From UHGV virus genome UHGV-1522278: DNA of 54,320 bases, one strand, 5' to 3'. This DNA comes from a virus. Below, in pieces: positions 2,917 to 26,347 of the stretch. Position numbers and translations under genes: made by a program. How positions within the stretch are numbered: position 1 is the stretch's first letter; the number at the start of each line of letters is the position of its first letter. The notes below the pieces were generated by a model. That model saw nothing but the letters and a program-made list of their open reading frames with translations, was not told the origin of the DNA and did not search any database.

Positions 2917-3110
2917 GATACACCGTTACTATTTTTCCACTGTGCCCGCGCATACATGATCGCCCGCAAAGAAATTAGGCGCGAGCTTGTCATGAAAGCG
3001 CTTTTTAAGTACCTCATATCAACAACAACAGGCTTATCAGGATCGTCGCCGCGCATGTATTCCGCAATTGTGCTTAAGTCTTCCACGGTCAAATCTAATT
3101 CCCTATTCAT
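2913..3110 (-). CDS. hypothetical protein
   Basis: 65-aa ORF in the nin-like region, start coupled to upstream gene. Confidence 0.45.
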   Translation of the reverse strand: MNRELDLTVEDLSTIAEYMRGDDPDKPVVVDMRYLKSAFMTSSRLISLRAIMYARAQWKNSNGVS

Positions 3111-3119
3111 GGCCGCCCC

Positions 3120-3326
3120 TTACACAATCCGCATTGTGTTTCGTAACTCACCGCGCAGCGCCTGCAAAGCGTAACGAATAGGCACAAAAGCCCGGTTAAA
3201 TTTTACATGCTTATACTTGCGCATTAATGGAGGCGTATAAACCATCGTGCCGCAACGATCGCATGTGAATTTAAAGTGAGATTCGTCAATAAACGTTTCA
3301 ACTGAATAAAAAATTACCCGTCTCAT
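3120..3326 (-). CDS. hypothetical protein with a CxxC pair
   Basis: 68-aa ORF containing CDRCG. Confidence 0.45.
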   Translation of the reverse strand: MRRVIFYSVETFIDESHFKFTCDRCGTMVYTPPLMRKYKHVKFNRAFVPIRYALQALRGELRNTMRIV

Positions 3327-3880
3327 AATTCCAACCCCGTTTCTCCGTTAAGTTTTTCAATCTCAAATACTGGTTTATCAGGTAGCAGGTAGTTATTTTT
3401 CCGGTACTCGTTCAGGCGGCTGTCAAAGTCAAACGCCAAATCATTGGCGTGACCGAATCGCCCAGGTTTAAACAGTGAGTAAAAATTAACCCCATGCCTA
3501 TTTGGATCAACGCAAAGCGTTTCATCAATCACCATTAAACGCAGAGTACGAGAAAGATAATTCCACGGTATACCCGTTTCAGCGCTAATGTCGCGCATAC
3601 GCTTTTTAACGCTGTAGTCACCAAATAACGACGCGACACGCTCACGACGTTCAGCATATAACTGTTTAATACGATAACCCAGCAGGCGGCGGCGGCGTCC
3701 AAAGCATGTATACACGCGCTCGACGATGCCGTTTTTTATTAAGTGTTTAATTGTCTCAGGCATGATTCCATACTTATCATACCCAGCCAATAACCCTGTT
3801 TTCTGGCGTAACTGGTGCATTGTTGCGATGCCATCAAGTTCAAGGATATTGATAATTTTTGTTTCAATTTCAGCGCTCAT
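3323..3880 (-). CDS. hypothetical protein
   Basis: 185-aa ORF downstream of the helicase gene in the same operon. Confidence 0.55.
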   Translation of the reverse strand: MSAEIETKIINILELDGIATMHQLRQKTGLLAGYDKYGIMPETIKHLIKNGIVERVYTCFGRRRRLLGYRIKQLYAERRERVASLFGDYSVKKRMRDISAETGIPWNYLSRTLRLMVIDETLCVDPNRHGVNFYSLFKPGRFGHANDLAFDFDSRLNEYRKNNYLLPDKPVFEIEKLNGETGLEL

Positions 3881-13249: not shown

Positions 13250-13870
13250 ATGAACGACATCAAAACAGCTTATTCACTCGGCAGCGAAGGCATGTTAATC
13301 ACTCGCTACACTGAAGACGCAAGTTTTCATGAAGTTGAAATTAAAGATTATCACGAAGTATTGAAAGATATGGAAGCTGGCAAGTATGACGCTGATTTGA
13401 ATCTGGCGTTACAGATTGTTGATATTGTGATGGATGCGTCGATCCGCGATTATGTGTCTTTAAATGCTGAAGAAAAAACGGCCGTAGCTCGTTATGTCTT
13501 CTGCCTTACTTTCGTAAAACGAATGGAAGAAGAATTTGGACGAGTACCAGTGCCGGAAGAAATTGACCCGCTGGCGTTCGGAAGTGCTGTTATTTTCCCG
13601 TTAGATGAAAATCATATGGGTAGCGTTGCGCTGTATTCTATGCGCGGCGTAATGAAAGAAATATTCGAGGCTAAAGCGTTACAGAAGTGTATTGATGAAG
13701 GGCACAAAGAGGAAGACGTAAAGGCGATCATGCCATTGTTTTACGGCGAAATGGTTGGAAATAATATGCGTGCAAATGATTTAGGTGTACAGGCGGCTAT
13801 AGCTGTGCTTAATGATGTACGGAAAAACGTGCAGCCAATGCCTGAACCTGAAAAGCGCGTACTTCATTAA
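13250..13870 (+). CDS. hypothetical protein
   Basis: 206-aa ORF. Confidence 0.55.
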   Translation: MNDIKTAYSLGSEGMLITRYTEDASFHEVEIKDYHEVLKDMEAGKYDADLNLALQIVDIVMDASIRDYVSLNAEEKTAVARYVFCLTFVKRMEEEFGRVPVPEEIDPLAFGSAVIFPLDENHMGSVALYSMRGVMKEIFEAKALQKCIDEGHKEEDVKAIMPLFYGEMVGNNMRANDLGVQAAIAVLNDVRKNVQPMPEPEKRVLH

Positions 13871-13877
13871 CGTTGTG

Positions 13878-13917
13878 GTTGCGATCGCATAAATATACGT
13901 TTTGTGTTGCGATCGCA
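13878..13917. promoter_or_regulatory. two copies of the palindromic motif GTTGCGATCGCA
   Basis: copies at 13878-13889 and 13906-13917, each with a central GATC, in a 99-bp intergenic gap. Confidence 0.35.
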
Positions 13918-13969
13918 AATCCGTTTTGTGAACTGAAATCAAAAGGTTTACGGCGCGGAGGAAAACAAG

Positions 13970-14188
13970 ATGGCCCGCGAATTAATGCTTTATTGTGTTG
14001 AGGGTGGAGTAGGTCACGATGCCTACGTCGCCGGGAAAGGCTATCCAGCCGATGAAGTGCTTTCTAATATGCACTTCCGGGAAAATGAAAGCCGGGTGTC
14101 TGTGTGGAAACGGTGCATTGATGGTATTGAAGTTGTAAGTATCGAACGGTATTTAGGCACATTTGATTACGGTGTTATTGAGGCTTAA
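13970..14188 (+). CDS. hypothetical protein
   Basis: 72-aa ORF with GGAGG RBS. Confidence 0.5.
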   Translation: MARELMLYCVEGGVGHDAYVAGKGYPADEVLSNMHFRENESRVSVWKRCIDGIEVVSIERYLGTFDYGVIEA

Positions 14189-14286
14189 TTATGGACGACA
14201 CATTGTTTTATATGTGCTGTTGCTGGGGTTTTATTGCCTTATGCCTGTTTATCAGGTGGTTTATTGAATACCATATGAGGTGATTT

Positions 14287-21785: not shown

Positions 21786-22009
21786 AAGTTAAATTCTTGC
21801 ACGATCACGGTTATCCGTCACTGAAACAGGTTGTTGGTAAGGTTGTTAACGTCGTCCATAGCGATGATGTCACTTGCATGATTAACGGTGCTGATTTAAT
21901 CGCCGCTGGCGCTGATGATCATTACATCAATCCTGCCTGGTCGTATACGTTCAGCCTGGGTGACTTCGTTGGCGACAAGGGGCGCGGGCTGGAAGTAGTC
22001 GAGGGTTAA
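21782..22009 (+). CDS. hypothetical protein
   Basis: GTG start at 21782 overlapping the upstream stop. Confidence 0.4.
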   Translation: MKVKFLHDHGYPSLKQVVGKVVNVVHSDDVTCMINGADLIAAGADDHYINPAWSYTFSLGDFVGDKGRGLEVVEG

Positions 22010-22013
22010 CATC

Positions 22014-22262
22014 ATGGACGTTTACGAAGATCTATACCTCCAGACAAACACCCGCACTTTTTATTTTCTGAAAAACGGCGTCGTATATCGCAGCGACGAC
22101 GGGGTAATAATGAAGGAGTGGTTATTTAAGCGTAAAGACCTACTCGACGATCTGGTTTTTGCCGGGATATTTCGTAAACGTCCGGCTAACCTGGAAGAAG
22201 AAATGTTGATTGAGGTATATCAAAATGAAAATCAGGGTAAGTTATTTCCGGGCGAAAGATAA
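22014..22262 (+). CDS. hypothetical protein
   Basis: 82-aa ORF. Confidence 0.45.
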   Translation: MDVYEDLYLQTNTRTFYFLKNGVVYRSDDGVIMKEWLFKRKDLLDDLVFAGIFRKRPANLEEEMLIEVYQNENQGKLFPGER

Positions 22263-22476
22263 GGCAACAGGAAAGCAGATGGCGATCCTGGTAAACGAGG
22301 CCAATTACATGTTTGTGCTTCAACCGTGGTGTATAGCTGACTATAACGATAATTATCGCCGCCACAGCGCGCGTGGTGCTGTAGGGATGAAAGGCTGGCA
22401 GCCGCGCGACATGGAAAGCTATTGTGAATGGAAGCTGATAGCAAAATACACGGTCGATTATAAAGGTGTGTTCTGA
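22225..22476 (+). CDS. hypothetical protein
   Basis: start at the ATG at 22225 (GAGGT RBS). Confidence 0.45.
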   Translation: MKIRVSYFRAKDKATGKQMAILVNEANYMFVLQPWCIADYNDNYRRHSARGAVGMKGWQPRDMESYCEWKLIAKYTVDYKGVF

Positions 22477-22531
22477 TGGTATTGCTTTCACGCAATAAAT
22501 ATAAAACGTGATCTACCTCGCAAAATATACG

Positions 22532-22563
22532 AAATGGCATTGTTTCGGCAGTGCCATTTTGTT
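22532..22563 (+). terminator. candidate rho-independent terminator
   Basis: AAATGGCA...TGCCATTT stem with a long loop, followed by TTTTGTT. Confidence 0.35.
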
Positions 22564-22586
22564 ATATATAAGCCACCGAAAGACGG

Positions 22587-22898
22587 ATGGGCAAAATCAT
22601 GAAAAGCAATAAATTCATAGCGTGCTGTTTTGTTGAAGTACCTGAAGGTGATGTCTTCTGCAATTACGAATTTAAAGACAGTTGGGGAAAATCTCATGTT
22701 GTAGTTGGCAAGCGCGGGGACTGGTTATACATAACAGACGATGACATGATTTTTACTGTAAGCCAGTTATTCAAAATTAAGTCAGAAAATAGTGAAGCAC
22801 CACTTTGCAGAATGTTTAACATGCATTATCACTCACTATTATTGTTAAAACAAGATGTTGTAAACAAAGCGCGTAGCTTACCTGGTGCCGAATTTTAA
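22587..22898 (+). CDS. hypothetical protein (AT-rich insert)
   Basis: 103-aa ORF in a visibly AT-richer stretch after a terminator-like hairpin. Confidence 0.5.
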   Translation: MGKIMKSNKFIACCFVEVPEGDVFCNYEFKDSWGKSHVVVGKRGDWLYITDDDMIFTVSQLFKIKSENSEAPLCRMFNMHYHSLLLLKQDVVNKARSLPGAEF

Positions 22899-22921
22899 TT
22901 TCTTACGAAGGAGAATGACAA

Positions 22922-23122
22922 ATGTCTAAATTTATCAGCGTTAAAGTTTTTCGTGGCACTTTTCCAGAAGATGAAAAAAATGGACAATTCGCCGGACAAC
23001 CTGGCGCATGTTTCCGTGTAGCAACTGACAACGAAGATTGCGTAAAATGCTACCACGTATCTGAACCTCCTTTTGACGTGAAATATCTTGATAATGCAGA
23101 TCACGTTAAATTTTTATCTTAG
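22922..23122 (+). CDS. hypothetical protein (AT-rich insert)
   Basis: 66-aa ORF with AAGGAG RBS. Confidence 0.5.
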   Translation: MSKFISVKVFRGTFPEDEKNGQFAGQPGACFRVATDNEDCVKCYHVSEPPFDVKYLDNADHVKFLS

Positions 23123-23221
23123 TATCATTGGAACTTAATCCATTCCCTGGTGATGAAGTGGAATTGATTGGCGCTGAACTGGTCGCTGAATACAAAATGA
23201 CTGAAGGTGTAACAGGGGGAA

Positions 23222-23476
23222 TTGACATTGAGCGCATCAAGTAAGCTATACAAGATCAGGTGTAAAGGCGAATATCCTGGCTTTACGACTGGTTGCGAAT
23301 ACCTGGGCCATATTGGGTACGGCCCTTTCGGCGAATTAGGGATGAATACGCTGGACGACGATGGCGACAACAGGACGCTTGATCTTGATTCTGATGATTT
23401 CGAATACATCCCGCCAGTAACTTACCGCGTGGTTGATGAGTTCCTGGCTGAACATGAAGACGATGAGGATGATTAA
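23222..23476 (+). CDS. small highly acidic protein
   Basis: 84 aa, non-ATG start inferred; Asp/Glu-rich C-terminal half ending EDDEDD. Confidence 0.4.
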   Translation: MTLSASSKLYKIRCKGEYPGFTTGCEYLGHIGYGPFGELGMNTLDDDGDNRTLDLDSDDFEYIPPVTYRVVDEFLAEHEDDEDD

Positions 23477-23608
23477 ATGGAAGATTGGTATAAAAATTTG
23501 CTAATTATGTTTCTTTCTGAAAATTGGGCGCTATTTGAGCGTTTTTGCGAGGAACATGGAGAAGACCCTAACGATATTTATCACGATCTTGGGGGTGAAG
23601 ATGATTGA
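23477..23608 (+). CDS. small ORF (43 aa)
   Basis: ATG directly after the upstream stop. Confidence 0.3.
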   Translation: MEDWYKNLLIMFLSENWALFERFCEEHGEDPNDIYHDLGGEDD

Positions 23609-24213: not shown

Positions 24214-24240
24214 ACCCGGCCCCGTGCCGGGTTTTTGCTT
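24214..24240 (+). terminator. rho-independent terminator just upstream of the holin gene (tR'-like)
   Basis: ACCCGGC-cccgt-GCCGGGT followed by TTTTTGCTTT. Confidence 0.55.
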
Positions 24241-24256
24241 TGTTGGAGGTAAATCT

Positions 24257-24457
24257 ATGTTCGACAGAATACGGGAGGCGTGTGCGTATGTGACCGGGGC
24301 CGTAACTGCTTTTTTCGGCGCGATAACCATCAATGACATTGCCGTCTTTGTGGGTATCTTATCAACCATTGGCACATTTGCCGTTAATTATTACTTCAAA
24401 TCACAGGAGAACAAGCGAGCGCAAGAGGAACACGACGCGCGAATGGGGAATAAGTAA
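24257..24457 (+). CDS. holin (class II / pinholin-like)
   Basis: 66 aa from the ATG at 24257 (GGAGG RBS); two TM segments and a charged C-terminus; precedes a SAR endolysin. Confidence 0.75.
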
Positions 24458-24458
24458 C

Positions 24459-24950
24459 ATGATTAGCCAATCGCTGAAAAACAAGATTGTTGCGGCGGCG
24501 GCTGGTGGGGCGATCGCTATTGCGGCGGTGATGATTAAGCCATTAGAGGGAGTTGATTACAATCCTTATCGTGATGTTGTTGGTGTATGGACTGTTTGCC
24601 ACGGTCATACGGGAAAAGACATCATGCTTGGCAAGACTTACACGCAATCAGAATGCGATGCTTTGTTAAATAAAGATCTACACAAGACCGCAAAAGCGAT
24701 CGATCCATATATTAAAGTCGAAATATCAGATTTTACCCGCGCAGCACTTTATTCATTCGCCTATAACGTAGGCGCTACCAATTTCAAAACATCAACCTTA
24801 TTGAAGCTACTCAATGACGGCAAGAAATCAGAAGCGTGCGCACAGCTTAAACGCTGGGTATACGCTGGCGGTAAGAAGTGGCAAGGCCTGGTTAACCGCC
24901 GCGAGGTTGAATATGCCGTTTGCGAATGGGGTGAAACATGGACAAGGTGA
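24459..24950 (+). CDS. SAR endolysin (T4-type lysozyme fold, phage 21 R-like)
   Basis: 163 aa; N-terminal signal-anchor-release segment [17 protein letters not shown]; catalytic E-x8-D-x5-T. Confidence 0.9.
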
Positions 24951-25408
24951 AGACGTTAATCATCGCCGTTGTTGTTTGTATTGTTGTTGGCCTTGTTGCC
25001 GCGCTCAGTCATTGCCAGTCAGTGATAAACACAATGCAAAGCGAGCTAACTACTACGCAGGGCGCACTAAAAACAGCAAGTAACACTATTCAGCAGATGA
25101 AGGAGCGAAACGCCGAACTGTCAAAACTTGATAAGAGGTATCACGATGAGATTAAAGCTATCAGATCTGACATTGCCGATCTGCGCACTGGCATTGATAA
25201 CGGTACTATCCGGTTGCGCGTCAACGCAATACCCGTGCGAGTGTCCGACTCCACCGGAACCGCCAGCCGCATTGATGGAGCCACCTGTAGACTCACTCCC
25301 GACGCTGAATCAGCTTATCTATCCCTCAGAGAACAACTAAAAACGAAAGACGCTCAGATCACTGGGTTACAGGACTACATCAAAACGCAGTGCTTACGCA
25401 AAGAATAA
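24938..25408 (+). CDS. Rz-like i-spanin
   Basis: 156 aa; N-terminal TM segment then coiled-coil periplasmic region; overlaps endolysin end. Confidence 0.8.
25146..25340 (+). CDS. Rz1-like o-spanin lipoprotein (embedded in the +1 frame of Rz)
   Basis: start at the ATG at 25146 (AAGAGG RBS); lipobox LSGC; Pro-rich mature part. Confidence 0.7.
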   Translation: MRLKLSDLTLPICALALITVLSGCASTQYPCECPTPPEPPAALMEPPVDSLPTLNQLIYPSENN

Positions 25409-25687
25409 CAGCGCGTGGACGTGTCGCCGTTTCCGCCAGCCAGCCATAACCGGGCCAATCCTTCCCGCGAGCGACGGCGGAAAAGTCAAAAACACGTAAT
25501 ACCTGGTCAACAGCCTCATTAACAGGTCCGGCGCTACCTGGGTAGAAGAAAGCGCCATTCTCCAGTTTTATAAAATTCTGAAAACGGTACTCATGCAGCG
25601 CCGTTTTTAGTGTTTTATAGCTGTTTTCACTCCCTGCGGTGTCCGGTTTTGCGGGGGTTATATTTTTCAGGATAGAGGAATATTCTG

Positions 25688-26272
25688 ATGGCTAAGGCTA
25701 AAGGCATCAAGTTGCCTCAATTCAAAGTTCCGCTCTTTGAGCATACAACTGTTTTCTTCTGCCCGACCCGCGAGATGTTCTATGAGTTTTGCGAAAAGGC
25801 AGGGATCCCAATCGAACCTGATTTCGAACTGGCAGGGGGATTAACACTTACTTGCACTGGAGAGAAAGGCGGTAACTTCTACGTGATCGCAGTATTCGAC
25901 AATGAGTTAGGAACGCTGGTACACGAATGCGCCCACACCACATTTCACGTATTAAGTGATGTAGGTGTCGTGGCGACAACTGATCCAACTCATCCGGCAA
26001 ACGAGACTTACGCTTACATGGTAGGCCGCATCTTTGATGCATTCTTCCCGATCCTGGCTGAATCAAACGAAGCACAGGTGGCAGCTATGCAGGCCGCTGA
26101 AGTCGTAGAGAAGGCATTAGACCAGGCAGAAAAGGCGACTGATGCAGCAGAACAGGCAGTTGAACAGGCAGAGGAGCCGAAAGAAGAGAAAAAACCAGCG
26201 AAGAAAGGCAAACGTAAGCCTAAAGCAAAAGAAGCGCTTGTACCGCGTGTAATGAGCTTTAAACGGGGGTGA
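25688..26272 (+). CDS. hypothetical protein with HExxH motif and Lys-rich C-terminal tail
   Basis: 194 aa; VHECAHTTFH; C-terminus KEEKKPAKKGKRKPKAKE. Confidence 0.6.
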   Translation: MAKAKGIKLPQFKVPLFEHTTVFFCPTREMFYEFCEKAGIPIEPDFELAGGLTLTCTGEKGGNFYVIAVFDNELGTLVHECAHTTFHVLSDVGVVATTDPTHPANETYAYMVGRIFDAFFPILAESNEAQVAAMQAAEVVEKALDQAEKATDAAEQAVEQAEEPKEEKKPAKKGKRKPKAKEALVPRVMSFKRG

Positions 26273-26347
26273 TTATGGTTACTTTTCTGTTGGGTTTATT
26301 TATCGGAATGGCTGCCGCTGTAATATTACTGGTTGGTGAATAATGTT

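Follow-up and report, generated by a model that had tools for sequence, protein, structure and literature searches.

Zincin-like MPTase domains are found in phage polyvalent proteins, for which a role as injected effectors has been proposed (PMC5512222), and in the virion RNA polymerase (vRNAP) of phage N4, a protein of 3,500 amino acids (aa). The MPTase domain of N4 vRNAP extends from aa 2130 to 2448 (Iyer et al. 2017, PMC5512222), and subdomain C1 corresponds to residues 2124-2375 in a structure of 2026 (PMC13434306, accessible part; PDB 9pnq and related entries). The MPTase-containing region is needed for the encapsidation of N4 vRNAP (PMC5512222; PMC13434306, accessible part). Another protein of interest is encoded by the phage gene hkcC, which is listed as being of unknown function in the epsilon34 genome paper (PMC2629481). 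This work deals with a gene situated at 25688-26272 of the UHGV virus genome UHGV-1522278, a stretch of 54,320 nucleotides called here the window. Its 194-aa product had been described in a first-pass annotation as an HExxH-motif protein that may be a metallopeptidase or a DNA/RNA-binding protein.

Profile comparisons indicate that the N-terminal part of this protein is a domain homologous to the zincin-like MPTase of phage polyvalent proteins and N4 vRNAP C1. With moderate confidence, the whole protein is regarded here as a stand-alone, late-expressed and trans-acting Zn-metallopeptidase, belonging to a phage-specific zincin lineage related to the MPTase of polyvalent proteins and N4. The open reading frame (ORF) and the translation given for it agreed exactly with the sequence when they were rechecked. 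The gene and its parts are as follows:

25688-26272, plus strand: complete ORF including the stop codon, with ATG start, 194 aa.
25688-26062, plus strand: minimal zincin-like domain, residues 1-125, from the PHROG 1365 match, the structural model and hhalign.
25922-25936, plus strand: H79-E80-C-A-H83 (HECAH), with H79 and H83 as predicted Zn ligands and E80 as predicted catalytic base, in helix 74-91.
26000-26005, plus strand: N105-E106, with which the second helix opens and which lies in the block NE[TA][FY][CA]Y[LM]; third Zn ligand of gluzincin type, as predicted.
26063-26176, plus strand: acidic Ala/Glu/Gln-rich helical spacer, residues 126-163, net charge -8, which continues the Glu helix.
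26177-26269, plus strand: Lys/Arg-rich disordered tail, residues 164-194, ending in VPRVMSFKRG, with a predicted local distance difference test score (pLDDT) below 50.

Residues 1-131 match PHROG 1365, a group of unknown function, with E = 4.9e-31 over profile positions 3-124 of 127. When these residues were used as query, an exhaustive phmmer search retrieved 166 representative clusters (50% identity) at E <= 1e-3. Nearly all of these clusters are 110-140 aa long, so that most members consist of the domain alone. By tblastn against phage genomes the family was located in 85 records, and its hosts include sipho-, P22-like, T7-like, N4-like and crAss-like phages. Single-sequence searches with the full protein gave no meaningful match in Pfam, NCBIfam or the PDB sequences.

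The HECAH motif is present at residues 79-83, as had been noticed in the first-pass annotation. A bare HExxH is by itself weak evidence and not significant, since the window has a single occurrence among its 64 ORFs of 100 aa or more, with 0.31 as the number expected from composition. Here it is meaningful because it is conserved throughout the family. The motif, whose loss in relatives had been set beforehand as an argument against the proposal, is kept in 148 of 151 family sequences; the three exceptions are two short sequences (70 and 105 aa) and one weak match of 527 aa distributed over multiple stretches. Only G51, H79, E80, H83 and E106 are invariant in an alignment of 78 sequences that share about 23-64% identity. 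H87, which had been proposed as the third His of the motif, is conserved in close relatives but not family-wide. Because H87 is variable and E106 is invariant, the signature of the family is HExxH plus Glu, that is, a gluzincin arrangement. The Glu is situated 19-20 residues past the second His in most members and at +23 in the clade of the window protein.

Thermolysin, of MEROPS clan MA(E), has an HExxH motif and, some 20 residues C-terminal to it, a Glu set in an 'NE' context. The window protein would share with it the same ligand set, the Asn before the Glu and a near-equal spacing. However, no sequence or Foldseek similarity to thermolysin-like enzymes is detectable and the domain is about one third their size.

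The relationship to N4 was approached by aligning profiles with hhalign. The family profile against the single N4 segment reached 74%. An N4-type MPTase profile was then assembled from 13 sequences of diverse Schitoviridae, collected by tblastn on phage genomes; it shows ETLiHElvHA, an insert of about 65 residues and then ALNEFMAWgL. The profile-profile alignment of the family with this N4-type MPTase gave a probability of 93.0% (E = 3.4e-7, 93-117 columns). With the reversed template as control the probability was 0.1%, and none of 20 column-shuffled templates exceeded 0.5%. After removal of the N4 insert, E106 aligned with the Glu of N4 'NEFMAW' and the score did not rise. This unchanged score means that the equivalence of the two Glu residues is compatible with the alignment but not independently supported by it. 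The Pfam family MPTase-PolyVal (PF18818) matched one of the 78 members, at E = 0.1, and did not match the window protein. A relative with 60% identity (P0118) carries the third-party name 'PolyVal Metallopeptidase superfamily domain', which points in the same direction as the MPTase link.

In both the N4 vRNAP MPTase and the window protein, the HExxH helix follows a small sheet (a predicted one in the window protein) and a later helix bears an N-E-x-x-[A/C]-aromatic block (NEFMAW in N4, NETYAY here). Both belong to phage-specific lineages, with what appears to be a late or virion context of expression or use. There are also clear differences, because the window domain is free-standing and of about 120 aa, whereas that of N4 lies inside a 3,500-aa protein and has the insert of about 65 residues between the two helices. 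Besides, the domain of the window protein is followed by an extension made up of an acidic spacer and a basic tail. An assignment to the multidomain polyvalent-protein architecture was also considered and discarded, as the protein has only 194 aa and the family is mostly composed of stand-alone proteins of 110-140 aa.

The predicted structure agrees with the order of elements expected for a zincin. The AlphaFold model of the domain, based on the 78-sequence alignment, has a pLDDT of 94.4 and a predicted template modeling score (pTM) of 0.88. It contains strands at 11-13, 21-25, 51-57 and 63-69 and helices at 28-38 and 44-48, followed by the HExxH helix (74-91) and by a helix at 103-130 that opens with N105-E106. 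The HExxH motif is thus predicted inside an alpha-helix, as in the zincin superfamily, and the beta-sheet required by the zincin core is placed N-terminal to this active-site helix. As far as sequence and secondary structure are concerned, E106 is found where a third ligand on the next helix is expected. PMC5512222 describes the same order of elements for the core of the zincin-like MPTase. The full-length AlphaFold model, obtained with a shallow alignment, has a pLDDT of 77.5; in it a helix at 104-161 spans the spacer and the tail is disordered. A fold search against the predicted viral structures of BFVD gave 27 matches at E <= 1e-3, with template modeling (TM) scores up to 0.81, nearly all of them named 'uncharacterized protein' and coming from very diverse phages. 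At the fringe of this list there are a SprT-like protein (6e-5), a Metalloprotease (2e-3), a granulovirus SprT (7e-3) and IrrE-like and BepA-like proteins (about 0.07-0.08).

Searches with known peptidase families also bear on which type of metalloenzyme this domain could be. Among the 78 members, the Pfam scan returned sub-threshold matches only: SprT-like appeared in 18 of them (best E = 0.009) and the others were singletons in other zincin families. The recurrence of SprT-like, together with the viral model named 'SprT-like family protein' found at E = 6e-5 and with a basic tail that could provide DNA dependence, would suit a genuine DNA-dependent protease of the SprT/Spartan/Wss1 type, acting in the removal of DNA-protein crosslinks. 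This identity is nevertheless very improbable. The best score on PF10263 is 14.7 bits, against a gathering score of 25.6 bits, and it covers only about 20 residues around HExxH, while E. coli SprT itself, used as positive control, reaches 82.5 bits. The hhalign comparison with E. coli SprT/YggI gave 5%, and the SprT zinc ribbon (PF17283), present in E. coli SprT, was not found in the window protein. In SprT-type motifs the third ligand is a downstream His, whereas the conserved residue predicted for this role in the present family is a Glu. The protein may share with SprT-like, Spartan, Wss1 and ArdC proteins a functional logic, in which a small zincin is joined to a nucleic-acid-binding element, here putatively the basic tail; it has neither the ArdC-N domain nor the zinc ribbon.

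Another alternative is that the domain is a non-peptidase HExxH metalloenzyme, for instance an Fe(II)/alpha-ketoglutarate hydroxylase of HExxH type or some other hydrolase. HExxH is also present in such enzymes (PMC13434306, accessible part), and two family members match the aKG-HExxH model TIGR04267 with E = 0.007 and 0.029. However, these matches extend over about 30 residues and score 14.4 and 16.3 bits against a cut-off of 40 bits, and the window protein gave no match to the model. Moreover, when the family profile was compared with the PDB sequences, the 13 weak matches obtained (E = 0.045-1.1) all corresponded to zincin peptidases (myroilysin, BMP1/tolloid and peptidyl-Lys endopeptidase) or to N4 vRNAP residues ~2186-2234, which fall within the MPTase/C1 region. 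The predicted order of sheet, helix and Glu helix and the invariant Glu of the NE block suit the description of zincins, and a domain of 120 aa offers little space for a co-substrate site. A non-peptidase enzyme is therefore improbable. In summary of these comparisons, the idea of a zincin metallopeptidase put forward in the first-pass annotation stands as regards homology and predicted fold (motif, Glu, topology, hhalign probability of 93% and zincin-type PDB matches) but not as regards the third ligand and membership in SprT. Homology to a characterised non-enzymatic family, which would have argued against an enzyme, was not found.

The highly basic tail noticed in the first-pass annotation is indeed present: residues 164-194 (PKEEKKPAKKGKRKPKAKEALVPRVMSFKRG) include 13 Lys or Arg in 31 residues and have a net charge of +10. 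In close relatives the spacer varies both in length (forms of 180 and 194 aa) and in sequence; an origin of this length polymorphism as a DNA tandem repeat was ruled out. In the tail of the same relatives K172, K175, R176, K177, K179, K181, P186 and V188 are invariant. Long C-terminal extensions are found in 8 of 121 members, and the layout of an acidic helix followed by a K-rich segment and '...KRG/RRG' appears in two diverged lineages, P0121 (57% identity) and P0177 (32%). A short basic C-terminal peptide, often similar to PKRGK/R, is present in 20 of the 121 members, and ORF49 of phage RSB3 ends in RPRKG. By comparison of these sequences, spacer and tail are considered a lineage-specific add-on. 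The conservation of the tail at the level of composition suggests a selected electrostatic function, and nucleic-acid binding would be the most economical guess from that composition.

According to the reading favoured here, the protein would be a three-part cytoplasmic protein, with a zincin-like domain (residues ~1-125), an acidic spacer (~126-163) that prolongs the second helix, and a basic tail (164-194). By analogy with zincins, a single Zn2+ ion would be coordinated by H79, H83 and E106, and the water molecule used for hydrolysis would be activated by E80. The protein is probably produced late, alongside the lysis and packaging proteins, and a free-standing domain suggests action in trans. 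Its most likely activity would be the cytoplasmic cleavage, at a late stage of infection, of one protein or a few, either of the host or of the phage. In the lineage of the window the tail may gather the enzyme on a polyanion, for which DNA or RNA is the most plausible candidate.

A more specific version, rather unlikely as it stands, is that members of the family are phage-specific minimal trans-acting proteases and that the one of the window is tethered to DNA and strips it of bound host proteins, such as defence nucleases, restriction complexes or nucleoid proteins. Such an enzyme could act shortly before packaging, on the DNA concatemers, or else once it has been co-injected with the genome. 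If so, phages would have invented independently the 'protease on DNA' logic of SprT, Spartan and ArdC, and a function would be at hand for P22 hkcC and for N4 vRNAP C1.

The tail and the position of the gene could also suit an effector delivered by the virion, that is, a protein packaged with the DNA through its basic tail, injected, and able to cleave a host defence protein or another host protein when the next infection begins; a comparable role has been proposed for internal head proteins as well as for polyvalent proteins with an MPTase. The gene is located in the late operon directly 5' of the packaging and head genes, the tail is suitable for contact with DNA, and the phage encodes a MuF-like head protein, MuF being a hub domain of polyvalent systems (PMC5512222). 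The homology to the N4 vRNAP MPTase goes in the same direction, as N4 vRNAP is packaged and ejected (PMC5512222; PMC13434306, accessible part). On the other hand, most members of the family are tailless. We know of no report of an hkcC product in the virion of P22, although this virion has been well studied. In the record of phage mEp021, virion proteins are labelled 'virion structural protein' (for instance gp41), whereas the homolog gp49 is a 'hypothetical protein', and the accessible part of PMC11893012, which reports 16 structural proteins, does not mention the gene of gp49. Virion delivery is thus unlikely, but it carries more weight than any of the other alternatives considered here.

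Other roles in the virion or in its release were discarded. P22-like phages do not process their capsid protein. Since the family is found in these phages and in many unrelated virion types, it does not correspond to a head-maturation protease. A lysis protein was suggested by a PHROG 'holin' match (E = 0.01), but this match is confined to the spacer and tail, which are of low complexity, and no hydrophobic segment is seen in the protein.

Several results weigh against a peptidase of the type proposed here. It is the N-terminal half and the HExxH helix that account for the hhalign match, and the Glu helix adds no score to it. No Pfam or NCBIfam model was matched above threshold by the window protein or by the scanned relatives. 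Foldseek searches of the PDB with the full-length and the domain-only models found, at best, unrelated folds with E = 0.05-0.12 and TM scores of at most 0.34; the long C-terminal helix had been suspected of disturbing the search, but the domain-only model performed no better. Demonstrated protease activity is not mentioned in the accessible part of PMC13434306 for N4 vRNAP C1, the closest structurally solved relative. The homolog of mEp021 is annotated as 'hypothetical protein', and neither the accessible text of PMC11893012 nor the record yielded expression or functional data on it. Finally, most members have no long tail, indicating that tethering to nucleic acids is not the core mechanism of the family. 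The literature on hkcC, mEp021, MPTase-PolyVal and anti-defence SprT-like proteins or metalloproteases did not yield any functional study of the family.

Some of these points would favour a non-catalytic role in assembly or binding, in which the zincin-like fold serves as a structural or metal-binding module without proteolysis. Besides the silence of the accessible part of PMC13434306 on protease activity, the corresponding N4 region is needed for encapsidation and N4 vRNAP is packaged unprocessed (PMC5512222). However, the predicted base E80 and the three presumed ligands are invariant over about 23-64% identity. Pseudo-enzymes usually lose the catalytic base. In addition, the presence of the family in unrelated virion types (sipho-, P22-like, T7-like and N4-like) argues against a single structural partner. 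A purely structural module is, on balance, decidedly unlikely, and a metallopeptidase is still preferred.

P22-like phages carry two paralog classes of the family. The first (~45% identical) is located between the lysis genes and the terminase and includes ST64T gp49, phage L Orf129 and epsilon34 gp70. The second (~36% identical) is hkcC, situated in the immI/ant moron beside sieA in HK620 and P22. Members of both classes, all labelled as being of unknown function, share with the window protein the same invariant residues and 36-46% identity, and ST64T gp49 also shares the position of its gene between the lysis genes and the terminase. Unlike the window protein, the hkcC/gp49-type members have 121-129 aa and are devoid of the long spacer and tail, and hkcC, unlike the gene of the window, is not in a post-lysis position. 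There are also distant members in the T7-like Ralstonia phage RSB3, directly after the lysozyme gene, and in the N4-like Pseudomonas phage phCDa. The post-lysis position of the gene therefore recurs in P22-like ST64T and in T7-like RSB3.

In P22 (BK000583) the hkcC ORF is intact at 13861-14226 on the plus strand (3001-3366 of locus L004) and is not annotated as a coding sequence (CDS). Its product contains HECAH...NETYCY and is identical to that of HK620 hkcC over the 121 aligned aa. The ORF overlaps the annotated promoter of sieA, which is on the opposite strand.

The presence of hkcC in the P22 immI (mnt/arc/ant) region raises the possibility of a protease similar to ImmA/IrrE (M78), which would control lysogeny through the cleavage of a repressor. 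One of the 78 members matches peptidase M78 (PF06114) with E = 0.099, and an IrrE-like viral model was found at E = 0.07. However, the M78 signal is at noise level, the gene lies on the late-operon strand with no repressor partner in the window, ST64T and RSB3, and its neighbours in the window are lysis and packaging genes. Strictly lytic phages carry the family too, and this explanation is extremely improbable. A defence-system gene was also considered and rejected: the gene lies on the late strand, which in P22 is not the strand of sieA but the opposite one, and the window protein and seven of eight relatives did not match any PADLOC-DB defence model at E <= 0.1, the remaining one giving a single noise match.

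There is good support for replacing the annotation 'hypothetical protein' with 'stand-alone zincin-like metallopeptidase-family protein with basic tail'. Small phage zincin-like peptidase domains are a kind of protein already known, and a relative has been labelled in this way by at least one annotation pipeline. What is new here is the extent of the family, its five invariant residues, the replacement of H87 by E106 as candidate third ligand and the description of the charged extension, as well as a controlled link to N4 vRNAP C1/MPTase, the rejection of SprT and the inclusion of P22 hkcC and ST64T gp49 in the family. If the protein is active, a function would be provided for a widespread phage family that lacks a curated model and a solved structure and includes an unannotated gene of P22. 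The domain of 120 aa would then offer a convenient experimental proxy for the HExxH subdomain of N4 vRNAP, which is enigmatic and part of a giant protein. A role as effectors against host defence or in host takeover is plausible for small phage proteases expressed late, so that a substrate would be of real interest.

Judging from its sequence, the window belongs to a temperate coliphage of the mEp021/mEpimmI group, whose phages are described in PMC11893012 (accessible part). The locus is about 91% identical to those of temperate coliphages of this group, where the homologs mEp021_49 and mEp044_72 are both annotated as 'hypothetical protein'. The first-pass annotation was right in stating that the gene is not a standard lysis or packaging gene. 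According to Pfam, its 5' neighbours (24224-25408) encode an HP1-type holin, a lysozyme and an Rz spanin, and its 3' neighbours encode an Sf6-type TerS (27119), TerL, a portal protein and the MuF-like head protein. The order Rz, gap of ~270 bp, zincin gene and TerS is retained in relatives with 60-67% identity. The non-coding gap of about 280 bp that had been reported in front of the gene was confirmed, with an exact length of 279 bp. Its elements and the translation signal of the gene are:

25409-25687, plus strand: intergenic gap between Rz and the zincin gene, 279 bp, 93-95% conserved in seven of seven related phage records.
~25580-25618, plus strand: hairpin resembling a terminator (AAAACGG...CCGUUUUU), with a U-rich run after it, seen in the RNA fold and conserved in the alignment.
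25675-25679, plus strand: Shine-Dalgarno sequence GAGGA, 8 nt 5' of the ATG, invariant in mEp021 and mEp044.

The gap contains no PHROG-matching ORF on either strand and no Rfam match, and its RNA fold is unremarkable overall (z = -1.2), so that a coding or RNA-family function for it is unsupported. No sigma-70-like promoter was seen in it, and the annotated terminator TERM_6 of mEp021 occupies the same relative position as the hairpin of the window. A gap with a terminator-like hairpin and without promoter suggests expression through read-through of late transcription; thus, late expression of the zincin gene and the packaging genes would most likely need read-through of the hairpin.

The left half of the gap (25394-25560) is GC-rich and contains a minus-strand ORF of 54 codons (25394-25558) without PHROG match. 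The conservation of this stretch equals that of coding DNA, and an insertion of ~58 bp at ~25560, the start of the ORF, is apparent in mEp021, mEp515, mEp013 and mEp010. This ORF may represent the remnant of a gene or have a regulatory role.

Genes for HNH endonucleases have been gained or lost around the zincin gene in relatives. HNH_3 homing-endonuclease genes are found at variable points of the module (L022 2752-3273; L023/L024 2739-3263 and 4563-5000), inserted in the interval between lysozyme and Rz or in that between the zincin gene and TerS. There is also one near the zincin locus of mEp013, while the window has none. The 26273-27118 region of the window, between the zincin gene and TerS, contains an array of tiny hydrophobic ORFs, such as that at 26276-26344 (MVTFLLGLFIGMAAAVILLVGE), several of which are annotated as tiny CDSs in mEp044; it is the 'micro-ORF array' of the first-pass annotation. 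The N-terminus of TerS (27119-27190, MARTKKAKADDKKPAAKKVGRP) is rich in Lys, Pro and Ala, a composition like that of the tail of the zincin protein.

Some other genes of the late region deserve mention. The MuF-like protein of the window has 321 aa (30455-31420), while that of one relative (L022, 8491 onward) has 635 aa and contains an intein (PF14890). In mEp021, the 82-aa protein mEp021_41 (1558-1806 of locus L001) is annotated as 'virion structural protein' and is encoded 5' of the lysis genes, an unusual site for a structural gene; its counterpart in the window lies around 22000-23500, among many small ORFs. Finally, a 350-aa protein of the head module (33156-34208) has DUF6260 as its sole match (E = 7e-113), a family that Pfam still labels 'unknown function'. 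Presumably the major capsid protein of the mEp021 group is to be seen in it.

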